A DNA stretch of 64,000 nt from Lophium mytilinum (taxonomy: Eukaryota). Numbering within the stretch: position 1 is the first letter of the stretch; every line of letters starts with the position of its first letter. The notes beneath the pieces were generated by a model that was not told where the DNA came from, did no database searches, and saw nothing but the letters and a program-made list of their open reading frames with translations. Of this stretch, positions 26,844 to 33,248 are shown in pieces. The position numbers were made by a program, and so were the translations under genes. The DNA lies in NCBI GenBank assembly GCA_010093605.1, contig MU004182.1, forward strand, positions 186,001 through 250,000, in the 5' to 3' direction.

Positions 26844-27937
26844 TCTGACTGCGTACCAGATCGGATGAAGTGAACTTAGGAATACCGACAAGGACTGTCC
26901 GAGGCTAGAAGAACCGGTTCTGGGTGTTTGACATGAAAACGAAGACGAAGAAGGGTAGAGAGGGGCTTGGGGCCTTTGAATTACTTGAATGCCTTACTCT
27001 GAATCTAGGCCGCGCAAAGTAACCTTACCTGAATCTATAATCTTAACATAGGCTGAATATGTCTAACATAGGAATACTATAGTACGATCTTTGAAAGTCT
27101 AGATGATACCACATACCAAGAACAGAGTCATGCAGCACCTACTCAAACAAGCAACACTTCAGCTCTCGCCAAATCCGACAAGGCCGCCAGTAAACGCTCG
27201 GTGGGGAGATATTGGACTAGGTCAGGTCAGCTCTCTGATGTACGATAGGCCCAAACATAAACCCTGGTCACTTGGACTCTCGGTACCCTCCCAGTCTCGA
27301 CCACTTCCATCCTGATCTGGCCAGAATCCACTGTGTACTCCGTTGGCTTCATCCAAGCATTCACCGCAGCCCCTCGAGCCAGTTTAAGATAACTCTTCCC
27401 CTCTTCTGCTCTTATCGTCACTATCGGTACTTTTCCTATGGGTCCGCGGCACCTGGATTTTGTTGGGGGAGTGGCGCATAGTTTTTCCGTGGGCCACGAC
27501 ACCACATATATCAGTACTGCTCTCCCGTACCGCGTTTACACGCTCTACTTTACCCGACACGTGTATCCCCTCATGCCCTACCACTACATTGCTTCGGTAC
27601 TGTATCTGGGCTGTCACGCGGCAAAACCTACAATATTGTCGTACGGTTTTCTGCTTATATCTGCCTACAACTATAAACCAGCCGAAGGTTGTGGCATAGT
27701 TTCACTAAAATCTTGCAGACAATTAGCATACAGCCGATCAGGAGAGATAGCTACAGAACACCCTTTTAGACTACTCACTATCAAGACAATAGTACTGATA
27801 GTGCTCGTCTAATCATGAATATAGAAACCGCAGTCTATCGTGCCTCCACCCGCTACGCGCACTTTTGGATATCATGAGAAAGGAAAGAAACCACACACAA
27901 ACGAGATGTATCTCGCAGCCAACCAACCACATCTCAC

Positions 27938-29211
27938 TCAACATCCATTATAGTCCCCGCCCCACCCACCGCCGGGCGCCCCCCTCCCCTGCAACGCCCT
28001 CGCGACCTGAATCCCCTGCGTCAAGAATCCTACTGCCGTATCCACGCCTTCATGCCCCGTCCTAATCGTCCCCGGCATCGGTGGGTCCTCCGGCCGCTCA
28101 ATGACGCCCGCCAGTTGCGCATCGCTCACGCTTCTTTGATGCCGATCGAGCACTAGCCGCCTGATCCCGACGTGCCACCGCTCGAACCACTGCTCCTCGC
28201 TGAGCGTGGTGTAATGCCGCTGACCGGCGGCATTGACCGTGGAAAACGGCCACACGGCTTCGACGACAGCGTAGCGCTTTGTGGCGAAGAACAGGTACGG
28301 CCAGGCGAAGATCCATAGGAAGGAGAGGTAGAAGAGCCAGCGGATCCAGGTGGTGAGGCGCCAGGAGTTAATGCGCGAAGAGGTGTAGAGGTCCACGTAG
28401 CGGTCCTCGATGGGAAACGTGATGGAGATGCGCCCACGGTAGTTCGTGCTCCTGATCAGCCCCTCGAGCCGGTTCTTCAATGGAGTTGTGTCTATTCCGG
28501 AGACGGTGCGACTCAGGCGGAAGACGCGCAGCGTGGAAGGAGATGCGCAGTAGCGGTGGCACCATTCCTTGAGCTCTGGTTTCGCGAGTCCGACCTCTAG
28601 CTCTTTGGTATACCCCGGAGCGCGTTGCTTGATGAAGGACCCGCGGAGGACTTTCTCGCCGTTTTCGACGGTGCGCACGGTCATGGTTTGGGAAGAGTCG
28701 GGGCGAAGGTACTCCTTGAGGGAGAGCACGAGGCGGAAGTCGACGACTTGTTGCGTCTCTTTCTTGTTGTTGGCCACTTTGCGGGTTTCGCTGTGGTGGC
28801 CTGTGGTTATGGAGTTAGCACTGGGGTTATTGGATTTAGCGTGGAGGTTGTACCCATGATATACACCAACGGTTCCGGAGCGGTCATAGCCATTTCTCGG
28901 ATAGCTTGTTCGAGGTACACTGGGTCTGTGTCGTATCGCGAGTCCATCACGTTGGAGACTTCGCAGACTACAGGCTTGCCTCCGCTCAGTGAGTATCCGG
29001 CGTCGTGGTCCATGCGATTGGAGGGCGGGGGCGGGATGTGTCGAGGCGCGGGTCTGGTGCTGCTTGAACCACCCACATCGTCGGTATATGCAGGTGGAAG
29101 GCCAGAGATTTCGGGAGCGTCGTCGTAGTTGAAGTCGTCGGGGGTAGTGTGCATTGATAATGCGTCAGGATCGTCCCGAAAGGCCTCGGAGTCGCGAGTT
29201 GGCCGACCCAT
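27938..29211 (-). CDS. Conserved-looking fungal hypothetical protein, 406 aa, with PPAY motif and C-terminal TM segment; exons 29211-28854 and 28800-27938
   Basis: Intron 28853-28801 (GTACAA...GCTAAC...CAG) joins YIMG-HHSETRK..VVDF; TM WLFYLSFLWIFAWPYLFFA; strong coding bias. Confidence 0.85.
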
Positions 29212-29875
29212 GGTGAAGATTTGCAAGAGGAGTGTATGAAGCTCGTGAAGAGACTTTTGAGGTAGTGTATTCGGAGGAAAAGAAGATGATGGACGCGACG
29301 CGCCTTTTGTACTCTTGTCGGAGGAGGGGCAGGATCAGGGGCGGGTCTGACACGGTTCGTTTGGGACAAAAGCTAGGCAACTGCTTACCTATCCCAGTCG
29401 CTGGAACCAGGCTGTCTGTGTTTGGTGTGAAGAGATTTATCGATTGGTCAATGGAAGAGTATAAGCAGTCTTTCCAGTTCTTCGATAGATGTCGTGAAAT
29501 GGAACCGACTTCTTGGGTACTAAAGTCGTTAGGAAATCAGGGTCCTCGGTCGTTGATTCTCTGCAGCCATAGGACGCTAATTTAAGCTTAACGTGATCTA
29601 AAAATACTTTCGCGATTTCTTCGGCAACCTCACTTTTTCGCGCTTCGTGACATCAAGCCTCACTCACACGTCCGACCACACCTCATTCCTTTTCAACGCA
29701 CATCATAAGCTAGTAGACGACGCTGGCAACCTACGGTCCCCTCAGTCGATCTTTATGTGCGCGGCCAGCCCTTCGAGTAACCTTCCACAGGATATGGAAT
29801 TTTGGTAGTGCGACACGCCAACACCCATCTATACCTCAAACCCCAAGCCAAATCAGACGGAAATCGCTCTCTACC

Positions 29876-32182
29876 ATGGCCGCAGACGCTGTCGATACTC
29901 AAGTGCGCCAAACCAGCCAAGAACTCACTCCCACAACAGATCGCGTAGCCATCGACACCGAGTCGCCCCCAAACAGCCGCGAACCTACTCCCACGAAGGA
30001 CCCTGCAACCATCGACGCCGACCCGTGCGCTGACCAACTCGTTGCCCATGACGGGGTGAATTTCACAACCATTAAGGAGGGGCTAGCATATATTCTCGTA
30101 CCGCAGGGTACCCCGACCTCCACCGATCCTAAAGCCCCGAAGGAAGATGCCGACAAGCAGTCCGTCTTCTACAATCCCATTCAACAATTCAATCGCGACC
30201 TGAGCGTGCTGGCAATAAGGGCATTTGGAGAAGATTTTGTGGCGGCTCAGAAGCTGAGGAAGGAGGCCGAACATAACAAGCCAGCGAATAAGAGGAAGTG
30301 GGATAAGAAAAGGCAGAAGAAGAAGGAATTGAAGAATCTAGGGAGGAAGGGTGAGAACGAAGAGATTGGTCCACAAAGCCCGACTAAGAAGAGGAGGATT
30401 GAGGGAAGTGGAGAACAGGTGGAAGTCACGGATGGTAGAATTCATGAGCTTGGAGCCCTGATGCCAGACCAAGAAGAAATGGAAATCGACATCATTGTAG
30501 ATAAACCTGAAGCTGCTTCTCACGAAAAAGAAGTTCTCCCATCCAGCACCGAAAATGCAGTGGTACAGGTACCTACCAATTCTGCCCCTGGTGAGATACC
30601 GCAGATGTTCGGCGAAGGGTCGAAAGGTGATGTTATTGCGGGAAATGCGAATCCGACAGACCAGCTAGCTCCGCCAAACAGCGCCGTACCAGGACTAAAT
30701 GGCAACACACCACCACCAAAACCCGATATCCGAATTCTGGACGCCCTTTCAGCCACAGGTCTACGAGCGCTGCGCTATGCGCAAGAATTCCCCTTCGCAA
30801 CCGCAGTCACCGCCAATGACATGTCCCAAAAGGCGACTGCATCCATTGCTCTTAATGTGAAGCACAACAAATTAGAGGACAAGATTACTCCGAACACAGG
30901 AAATGCCATTGCCCACATGTACAGCTTCGTTGGGACGAAAGGCTACGATGTTATTGACCTAGATCCATACGGCACCGCAGCACCATTCCTAGACTCAGCA
31001 CTCCAAGCTCTCACCCATGGCGGCCTTCTCTGTGTGACCTGCACTGACTCCGGCGTCTTTGCATCCACTGGCTACCTCGAGAAGACCTACTCCCAATACG
31101 GTGGTCTCCCAATCAAAGGCTTCCACTCCCACGAAGGCGGTCTACGCTTGATACTGCATGCCATCGCCACATCAGCGGCAAGATACGGTATGGCCACCGA
31201 GCCTCTTCTCTCCCTCTCAATCGACTACTACGCGCGCGTGTTCGTCCGCGTACGTCGATCCCCCGCAGAAGTCAAATTTCTGGCAGGCAAGCAAATGCTC
31301 GTCTACAGTTGCGATGCGGGATGTGGTGCATGGCAGACCCAGTTCCTCGCCCGCAACATACCGCGCGAAAACAAGGACGGTAGTTTATACTACAAGCACT
31401 CCTTCGCGCAAGCGCCCTCCGCCTCACCTTTCTGCGAACATTGCGGGACGAAGACTCACCTTTCTGGTCCCATGTATGGCGGGCCCCTCCACAACCCCGC
31501 CTTCATCGAACGAATCCTTGACTTCCTCCCTCATATCGACAAGGAGACGTACGCCACGACCGCGCGAATAGAGGGGATGCTACAGACCGCGTACGAAGAG
31601 ACTCTAGTCGACGCACCGGTAGTCTCGAAACGGGGGAAGCCAACCAAGGACTCGGAAACCGCCGAAAATAAGACTGCGGACACGGACTTGTATTCTTCTT
31701 CCATCCCGAAAATGGACCCCGCGCAAATCGACCATCACCCCTTCTTCTTCACCCCCTCCAATCTCTCCAAAGTCATCCATTGCCAAGCTCCTCCGGACGC
31801 CGCCATTCGTGGCGCCTTGCGAAATGCCGGCTTTAGAGCTACGCGATCCCATTGCAAGCCGGGCACGATTCGTACAGATGCGAGCTGGAAGGATTTGTGG
31901 CACATCATGCGCGAGTGGGTCAAGCAGAAGGCACCGGTGAGGAAGGGAGCGTTAAGTGAGGGGAGTGCGGGGTGGAAGATTTTGAGATTAGGGGAGGGTG
32001 AAGCAGAGAGAGCGAGAGACGGGGACGGTGAAGGAGAACAGGAGGATGGTGGTAAAGGAGAAGGAGGGCAGAGATACAAGGTTGTTTTCGATGAGAAGCT
32101 GGGCAGGGACGAGGGGCCAAAGTTGATGCGGTATCAGATCAATCCGAGAGCGAATTGGGGGCCGATGAATCGGGCGAAGTAA
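29876..32182 (+). CDS. TRM1: tRNA (guanine-26-N2,N2)-dimethyltransferase Trm1
   Basis: VFYNPIQQFNRDLSVL, ILDALSATGLRALRY, DVIDLDPYGT, GGLLCVTCTD, zinc-binding Cys (CDAGC, CEHCG) and C-terminal YQINPRANWGP; basic NLS-like stretches. Confidence 0.97.
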   Translation: MAADAVDTQVRQTSQELTPTTDRVAIDTESPPNSREPTPTKDPATIDADPCADQLVAHDGVNFTTIKEGLAYILVPQGTPTSTDPKAPKEDADKQSVFYNPIQQFNRDLSVLAIRAFGEDFVAAQKLRKEAEHNKPANKRKWDKKRQKKKELKNLGRKGENEEIGPQSPTKKRRIEGSGEQVEVTDGRIHELGALMPDQEEMEIDIIVDKPEAASHEKEVLPSSTENAVVQVPTNSAPGEIPQMFGEGSKGDVIAGNANPTDQLAPPNSAVPGLNGNTPPPKPDIRILDALSATGLRALRYAQEFPFATAVTANDMSQKATASIALNVKHNKLEDKITPNTGNAIAHMYSFVGTKGYDVIDLDPYGTAAPFLDSALQALTHGGLLCVTCTDSGVFASTGYLEKTYSQYGGLPIKGFHSHEGGLRLILHAIATSAARYGMATEPLLSLSIDYYARVFVRVRRSPAEVKFLAGKQMLVYSCDAGCGAWQTQFLARNIPRENKDGSLYYKHSFAQAPSASPFCEHCGTKTHLSGPMYGGPLHNPAFIERILDFLPHIDKETYATTARIEGMLQTAYEETLVDAPVVSKRGKPTKDSETAENKTADTDLYSSSIPKMDPAQIDHHPFFFTPSNLSKVIHCQAPPDAAIRGALRNAGFRATRSHCKPGTIRTDASWKDLWHIMREWVKQKAPVRKGALSEGSAGWKILRLGEGEAERARDGDGEGEQEDGGKGEGGQRYKVVFDEKLGRDEGPKLMRYQINPRANWGPMNRAK

Positions 32183-32902: not shown

Positions 32903-33100
32903 GGCCGAGCTCGGAGCTTCCTCCATCACTTCTACCTTCCACTTTCTTTGGCACCTGCTTGATGATGCCAGGACCGCCTTCGGACCGCAGACACCTGCCA
33001 ACGACTGCTCACGATACCTTCCGATTGCGGCCGCCAAGCTGTGCGACTATATCTACCTCCTCCATCGCACCATCCGACTCTCTTCCCTCAGCTTCCATAA

Positions 33101-33248
33101 TCCAATTCTCCTCCACACTCTCATCCGTTTGACAGACCTGATCGAACGTTGAATCCACTCCAACAGTGCCATCATCCGATTCTCTTCCACACTCTCATCC
33201 GTTTGACAAATTCGATCGAACGTTGAAGCCACTCCAACGGTGCCATCA
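33101..33248 (+). repeat. 74-bp direct tandem duplication (33101-33174 and 33175-33248)
   Basis: Both copies share TCCACACTCTCATCCGTTTGACA and GATCGAACGTTGAA..CCACTCCAAC.GTGCCATCA, with few substitutions. Confidence 0.92.

Follow-up and report, generated by a model that had tools for sequence, protein, structure and literature searches.

The window, which is the whole 64,000-nucleotide stretch of Lophium mytilinum DNA that was analyzed, carries a TRM1 gene whose reading frame continues upstream of its first AUG as far as a pair of stop codons. The features of the gene, with a leader that is covered by RNA, are as follows:

29676..29722, plus strand: 5' leader without ATG; position 29676 marks the least extent of the transcript and does not map its start
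29711..29716, plus strand: tandem in-frame stop codons TAG TAG, which close the frame upstream
29720..29727, plus strand: near-cognate start CTG at 29723-29725 in the context acgCTGgc, conserved in orthologs
29723..29875, plus strand: presequence-like N-terminal extension of 51 codons, putatively for mitochondrial targeting, by its composition and by alignment with 15 ortholog extensions
29755..29808, plus strand: longer, 17-codon version of the following upstream open reading frame (uORF), from a weak-context ATG (tttATGt) to the same stop, with an equivalent in 5 of 16 representatives (L001, L010, L067, L079 and L011)
29794..29808, plus strand: out-of-frame uORF of four codons, composed of ATG, three sense codons and TAG (M-E-F-W), conserved in 15 of 16 representatives
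29876..32182, plus strand: AUG-started TRM1 of 768 amino acids, a tRNA G26 dimethyltransferase, putatively the nuclear form, in an RNA contig without an intron
30290..30397, plus strand: basic clusters KRKWDKKRQKKK and KKRR, candidate nuclear localization signals by pattern match alone

The open reading frame matches the Pfam TRM family (PF02005) with an E-value of 5.4e-106 and 355 bits, against a cut-off of 27. The closest named relative of its protein is TRM1 of Mytilinidion resinicola, which is 79% identical and with which it groups in a protein tree (support 1.0), as expected for a Mytilinidiales-like dothideomycete. The frame is TRM1, orthologous to named Trm1 tRNA (guanine26-N2)-dimethyltransferases, and m2,2G26 activity is predicted. 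A single TRM1 match was found in the 43-Mb genome among five candidates scored, in an assembly that is possibly incomplete. The first in-frame ATG is at 29876, in the context accATGg, and the first 51 residues from it include 10 Asp/Glu and 4 Arg/Lys, so the N-terminus is acidic, as an earlier sequence-only reading of this DNA had described it.

The surroundings of TRM1 include a divergent gene at 27591-29493 on the minus strand, with an ATG at 29211 and an intron at 28800-28852. The frame of its second exon has no Pfam match, and its RNA contig ends at 29493, which is 182 nt from the TRM1 contig. Within 33009-33226, open reading frame translations contain two similar stretches in tandem, and an RNA contig of very high depth, whose ends are loose, matches 33105-33172, as a dispersed repeat might. 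On the minus strand at 35629-62433, an open frame of 7991 codons and an adjoining one of 942 codons have PAN-domain matches and coincide with a strong GC skew at 36-58 kb. These two frames are probably one giant gene for a repetitive protein.

Upstream of the AUG, the details given by the sequence-only reading proved exact on re-reading: TAG TAG is followed directly by ACG ACG (29717-29722) and CTG, the CTG has A at -3 and G at +4, and translation from it would add 51 amino acids with seven Arg, one Lys and neither Asp nor Glu. Ser and Thr account for 12 of these codons. No in-frame ATG occurs between 29717 and 29875, and two out-of-frame ATGs inside the extension, at 29755 and 29794, are absent from that reading. 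When the 153 nt were shuffled by base, 15% of the shuffles were stop-free, and 0.36% were also acid-free with at least eight Arg/Lys; among the 4383 51-codon segments of the window that are open and Met-free, 153 have the same composition. These frequencies suggest that the open basic extension, taken without orthologs, is not beyond chance, and it is the ortholog comparison that raises it above chance.

RNA evidence comes from one public run, whose contigs are unstranded and may derive from the very strain that gave the genome. Because the introns of neighboring genes are spliced out in its contigs, the run represents RNA. The contig at 29676-32636 is continuous, with no gap and no joint, and begins 47 nt before the CUG; the nearest ATG upstream of the leader is at 29499. 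The earlier reading had made the extension depend on transcription from upstream of the CTG, which is indeed covered without a joint from 29676 on, a position that reflects coverage, since these contigs give neither start sites nor any second, shorter mRNA.

A metagenome scan confirmed 175 relatives of this TRM1, the best 80 of which were kept and gave 79 distinct loci with flanks. Loci were sorted by a protein tree with named sequences and by cluster look-ups. Tree rows were omitted as identical to a kept row (L012, L024, L036, L048, L074 and L077) or as short (L058 and L072), and L058 was assigned to the window's clade by its likeness to L011. Among these loci from the best 80 of 175 relatives, 22 of the 79 form the window's clade, with Mytilinidion, Lepidopterella-like and Pleosporales members (support 0.995), and 39 others, all outside this clade, have an AUG-started presequence-like peptide. 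The AUG-started loci include ones clustered with Saccharomyces cerevisiae (L071, which is S. cerevisiae TRM1 by cluster look-up), Lachnellula, Corynascus, Penicillium and Cladosporium. Another seven loci, which lack an AUG, fall together with Coniocarpon and have GTG (six) or CTG (one) in the context A-NN-start-GC, and two AUG-less loci near Lasallia and Umbilicaria have CTG with G at -3. Nine loci (L005, L009, L028, L041, L042, L050, L053, L061 and L068) were unclassed by rule, and L003, L060 and L062, in which inspection revealed CTG plus internal AUGs, were counted as CTG type. In L028, a distant TRM1, a 105-codon open frame upstream of 2501 has no in-frame ATG before the conserved domain and ends in a presequence-like stretch, as either an intron or a purely non-AUG start would produce. 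Detailed comparisons use 16 clade representatives that share less than 80% identity yet are related, mostly Pleosporales, so that counts among them are not independent events. The AUG-started comparison set comprises 32 presequences, 7 of the 39 having been left out as near-duplicates or yeasts.

At one aligned position, 21 of 21 loci in the window's clade (L012 and L062 being left out as duplicates) have CTG (20 loci) or GTG (one), followed by a homologous peptide in a frame without stops. The sole CTG-to-GTG swap among the clade loci examined is in L058. Stops in the orthologous frame would have told against the sequence-only reading; the frame is open and the CTG is kept. Clade extensions are 39-58 amino acids long, Arg-rich, and acid-free or nearly so (0-1 Asp/Glu in the 16 representatives). 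When the 16 extensions are aligned, their first 100 nt contain no gaps other than three of 3 nt each. Representatives have CTG in 16 of 16, GC at +4/+5 in 16 of 16, and A (15) or G (one) at -3, the counts at -3 and +4/+5 being partly circular because the starts had been chosen with a rule (A at -3, CTG or GTG, then GC, 15-60 codons before the downstream AUG) or, for L003, by eye. Free of that circularity are the uORF spacing and the contrast between clade and control: the rule matches 22 of 23 clade loci, once each, versus 1 of 39 AUG-type loci, and the clade locus that it misses (L003) has CTG-GC with G at -3. CTG makes up 26% of Leu codons in the gene body. Upstream of the CUG, apart from -3, column identity is at most 10 of 16, and the first in-frame stop among orthologs lies 2-48 codons before the CUG. 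Over the whole gene, the third base is invariant in just 5 of 429 well-filled codon columns, and three of these correspond to the G of the CUG, the A of the uORF AUG and the T of the uORF stop.

Initiation had originally been attributed to CUG or ACG. Conservation in orthologs upholds the first of these codons. The ACG codons at 29717 and 29720 do not share in it: the codon before CTG varies (ACA, AAT, AAG, ACC, AAA, ACT, ATC or GTT), with only the purine at -3 kept, and for this reason the start is placed at the CUG. The window TRM1 has these features of a conserved non-AUG extension: a near-cognate codon whose context is good and with which conservation begins on the 5' side, an open frame under coding constraint, and an unspliced mRNA. 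Translation very probably initiates at CUG 29723.

The predicted extensions resemble mitochondrial presequences. Those of the 16 representatives contain 4-8 Arg plus Lys and 0-1 Asp/Glu, compared with 4-10 Asp/Glu in the next segment of equal length, and the 32 AUG-started TRM1 presequences contain 4-10 Arg plus Lys and 0-2 Asp/Glu. Hydrophobic moments are 0.46-0.94 in the clade versus 0.38-0.79 in AUG-started presequences, and the best 11-residue value in the window (0.52) is at the low end of the clade and within the AUG-started range. Most Pleosporales extensions end in an R-x-F-H-T-S-like motif, a candidate protease cleavage motif that has drifted in the window. The extension would in all likelihood direct mitochondrial import, and because the N-terminus of the short form is acidic, import likely depends on the extension. 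The ortholog comparison also supports the dual targeting that the sequence-only reading had proposed.

In 30 of 32 AUG-type loci, the upstream AUG has a pyrimidine at -3, which indicates that a weak first start is paired with a strong second one across the family. In this reading, the window's clade would use CUG as the weak start where most other filamentous ascomycetes use a weak-context AUG. The deep nodes of the TRM1 tree are weak, and the direction and number of changes between AUG and CUG are not fixed by it.

Yeast Ala1 and Grs1 are examples of proteins with non-AUG start codons. In the genome that contains the window, presequence-like peptides of CCA1 (L083), MOD5 (L082) and ALA1 (L085) begin at upstream AUGs with a pyrimidine at -3, and because these genes use AUGs, the CUG appears to be specific to TRM1. 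Three in-frame AUGs precede the domain of CCA1. At the TRZ1 locus of this genome (L084; G000:C14, minus strand), the AUG is preceded, upstream of 1070960, by 225 open codons among which there is no in-frame ATG. Approximately 157 codons upstream, aaaTTGgc opens a stretch rich in Arg, Ser and Thr, and the open frame also contains five ATGs that are out of frame. TRZ1 is a likely second source of a non-AUG mitochondrial isoform in this genome, judging from its reading frame.

The nested uORF begins 71 nt after the CUG, and its stop (29806-29808) ends 67 nt before the main AUG. Its AUG is located at +68 or +71 from the start codon in 15 of the 16 representatives, with a purine at -3 in 15 of 15. 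A length of four codons in 14 of 16 makes it a short AUG uORF, as in control of the GCN4/cpc-1 type. Its stop, which is TAA instead of TAG in L011 and L058, lies 31-70 nt before the main AUG in 13 representatives, and the distance from stop to next in-frame AUG is 7 to 70 nt among the representatives. The exceptions are L060, which is without the uORF AUG, and L013, which is without the uORF stop and in which the open reading frame overlaps the main AUG. The leaders of L060 and L062 have neither the AUG nor the stop of the uORF, and 30 nt after the CTG they contain an in-frame AUG in weak context. Some lineages can therefore do without the uORF. Half of the representatives (8 of 16, from Pleosporales, such as L007, L011, L014, L018 and L080) have a second in-frame AUG 6-7 codons after the main one, where ribosomes that re-initiate late could still start.

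The codon that supplies the A of the uORF AUG stands for six different amino acids (I, S, R, L, P and A) and nevertheless ends in A in 16 of 16 representatives, and the codon that supplies the T of the uORF stop encodes G, S, D or R, yet it ends in T in 16 of 16. Constraint at the uORF acts on nucleotides, at synonymous sites. This pattern makes it quite probable that the uORF is a selected translation element. A conserved Trp or uORF peptide was considered and rejected, since 11 of the 16 have W at the position, four have C and one has L, and the uORF sense codons vary. Also rejected was an RNA hairpin that helps recognition of the CUG, given z = -0.39 for the window leader, per-sequence values from -1.66 to +2.76, and no pairs in the consensus of 16 sequences. 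Because that consensus contains no conserved structure, RNA structure does not explain the conserved uORF sites.

Short uORFs are also nested in AUG-started presequences. Sixteen of the 32 AUG-type loci have an out-of-frame open reading frame of 1-8 codons 35-50 nt after the first AUG, all with a purine at -3, and the other 16 have no short uORF. Ten of the 16 begin at exactly +43, in another frame, with His, Asn or Tyr codons supplying the AT; these loci come from the clade that includes Lachnellula and from the sister clade that includes Corynascus. In three Penicillium-like loci the open reading frame is 3 codons long, and the Lasallia-near locus L076 has a uORF at +68. Among the loci compared, no similar uORF is present in the Cladosporium group, Corynascus itself or yeast. 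On the more tentative reading given below, short nested uORFs would occur in three or more fungal classes, with frame and position differing among them and with either AUG or a near-cognate codon as the upstream start.

We propose that the single TRM1 gene would yield two enzymes. A minority of scanning ribosomes would start at CUG 29723 and add the basic presequence of 51 amino acids, and the resulting long form would enter mitochondria, where it would methylate the tRNAs at G26. AUG 29876 would give the short form, which, with its acidic N-terminus and clusters resembling nuclear localization signals, would act on nuclear-encoded tRNAs. Ribosomes that pass the CUG would meet the out-of-frame AUG with its purine at -3, translate four codons and stop shortly (67 nt) before the main AUG, so the short form would require leakage past the uORF or re-initiation; its output would be lowered and the mitochondrial share raised. 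Because a conserved out-of-frame uORF lies between both starts, plain leaky scanning is an incomplete account. We regard the explanation as a whole, a CUG-started mitochondrial form plus a uORF-tuned short form, as likely on the comparative evidence, and for the narrower proposal that the uORF is a ratio-setting damper with some re-initiation the chances seem about even. More tentatively, filamentous ascomycete TRM1 could contain a three-part switch, composed of a weak start, which may be a CUG, a GUG or an AUG in poor context, a very small out-of-frame uORF within the presequence codons and a strong AUG, in which the uORF would regulate the nuclear versus mitochondrial share with initiation conditions. 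Such a switch is perhaps general and overlooked in dual-targeted genes. We consider this reading as a whole doubtful.

Alternately, there might be two mRNAs. A long transcript would then be translated nearly exclusively from the CUG into the mitochondrial form, the internal AUG being an insulator, and the nuclear form would come from a shorter transcript that starts after 29794. Alternative 5' ends exist in yeast TRM1, and the purine at -3 of every uORF AUG, the short distance of 31-70 nt from stop to main AUG, and the overlap with the main AUG that is tolerated in L013 all fit an insulator. According to parts of one report (PMC3105428), AUGs that lie within about 100-200 nt of a short uORF are poorly recognized, and an insulator role is proposed for the tNOX uORF. 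However, an insulator needs no stop fixed four codons on, and the stop is kept in 14 of 16 representatives even with a swap between TAG and TAA; moreover, most dual-localized Cryptococcus synthetases come from one transcript according to PMC7049704. Two mRNAs are thus possible, though we think them rather unlikely.

Queueing-enhanced non-AUG initiation is a known phenomenon, and ribosomes that dwell at the uORF AUG or stop might hold scanning complexes over the CUG and so increase initiation there. The distance from CUG to uORF AUG is 68 or 71 nt in all 15 representatives that have both, whereas that from stop to next in-frame AUG varies (7 to 70 nt), no conserved RNA structure is available to slow scanning, and the AUG-type uORFs lie at exactly +43 in 10 of 16 loci. 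L060, which has lost the uORF, carries an added in-frame weak AUG, a single event. However, fixed spacing is also what descent and a constrained presequence would give, and other lineages have spacings of 23, 35, 37, 46 and 50 nt, which leaves queueing an improbable explanation.

It is highly improbable that the region is an untranslated leader whose conserved bases constitute a promoter or RNA-binding element. This would accord with the chance of 15% for an open 51-codon frame, with the 116 of 119 listed homologous proteins that begin at the downstream AUG region, and with a protein search using the extension alone (residues 1-60), in which none of 15 candidates scored and no protein was found. 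However, gene callers pass over non-AUG starts, all 16 representatives keep the frame open with 0-1 Asp/Glu and with gaps of 3 nt, 39 other loci have AUG-started presequences at the same place, and the conserved bases form three islands that coincide exactly with a near-cognate start, an AUG and a stop. Least probable, and largely refuted, is a reading of the extension from an upstream AUG (for example, ATG 29499) through an intron that ends at a TAG triplet: TAG TAG follows a pyrimidine-rich stretch, in the manner of a 3' splice site, and splicing to 29717 could place that ATG in frame, but none of the 10 joints of the RNA run lies between 28853 and 33948, the contig crosses both TAGs unspliced, 29213-29716 contains no consensus 5' splice site, the invariant CTG is left unexplained, the upstream stop differs in position (2 to 48 codons among orthologs), and the CUG is on an unspliced RNA that extends 47 nt or more in front of it and has no ATG there, which removes this alternative.

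The preferred reading, a CUG-started long form and a uORF-tuned short form, can be compared with known systems. In the relevant sections of two papers, yeast Trm1 acts on cytoplasmic and mitochondrial tRNAs (PMC10275265, PMC10608323), and S. cerevisiae TRM1 yields proteins of 570 and 554 amino acids from two in-frame AUGs (PMC10608323). As in those accounts, a single gene with two N-termini would serve nuclear-encoded and mitochondrial tRNAs in L. mytilinum. The yeast AUGs are 16 codons apart, both yeast forms can enter mitochondria, and no out-of-frame AUG lies between them, as far as these sources go. In contrast, the window TRM1 does not have two in-frame AUGs of the yeast type; it has a CUG as upstream start, a 51-amino acid extension, an acidic short-form N-terminus and a uORF between the starts.

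For fungal tRNA synthetases, a layout of weak AUG and strong AUG, with interchange between the weak AUG and near-cognate codons, is described in portions of PMC7049704. Mitochondrial isoforms started by near-cognate codons are reported there for Cryptococcus ArgRS and LeuRS and in parts of PMC6582344 for yeast Trz1, with yeast Ala1 and Grs1 named among them. TRM1 resembles these enzymes, as portrayed in those portions, in that a non-AUG codon in strong context adds a presequence, and differs in the conserved uORF nested in the presequence, none being described for them in the consulted portions of PMC7049704 and PMC6582344. TRM1 is not mentioned in the main text of either paper, nor in one supplement of PMC7049704.

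Short uORFs allow resumed scanning with poor re-initiation at nearby AUGs, and human tNOX, R3HCC1 and EIF4G2 have non-AUG extensions with internal out-of-frame AUGs, as stated in sections of PMC3105428. The uORFs of these human genes are, in the same sections, long or many and tend to leave the non-AUG start as the only one, whereas that of the window has four codons and a fixed position, and both forms are presumably needed. PTEN (in parts of PMC4892431) and Neurospora cpc-1 (in part of PMC5487733) are like the window TRM1 in combining conserved AUG uORFs and near-cognate in-frame starts in one leader. The PTEN uORFs shift the isoform ratio and, unlike the nested uORF of the window, are near the cap and upstream of the extension starts (same part of PMC4892431), and cpc-1 has a leader of more than 700 nt with two uORFs for stress control (same part of PMC5487733). 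As presented there, neither gene divides an enzyme between organelles. The paired uORFs and long leader of GCN4 and cpc-1 are not found at the window TRM1, which has one conserved uORF.

A literature search by title and abstract, with genome-wide tables of non-AUG starts outside its reach, found no non-AUG TRM1 and no uORF nested in a fungal presequence. Dual targeting by non-AUG starts is already known, and the TRM1 layout with its nested uORF is the new element within the literature searched. The likely mitochondrial Trm1 is absent from gene models across a large clade of fungi, as seen in the predominance of listed homologs that begin at the downstream AUG region. TRM1 offers a natural experiment in the change from AUG to CUG or GUG, with dozens of sequences, and because the nested uORF is removable by changes that are silent in the extension frame, its role is testable. 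The question that this arrangement may address is how a cell keeps a useful organelle share of an enzyme when the isoform relies on an inefficient start codon.
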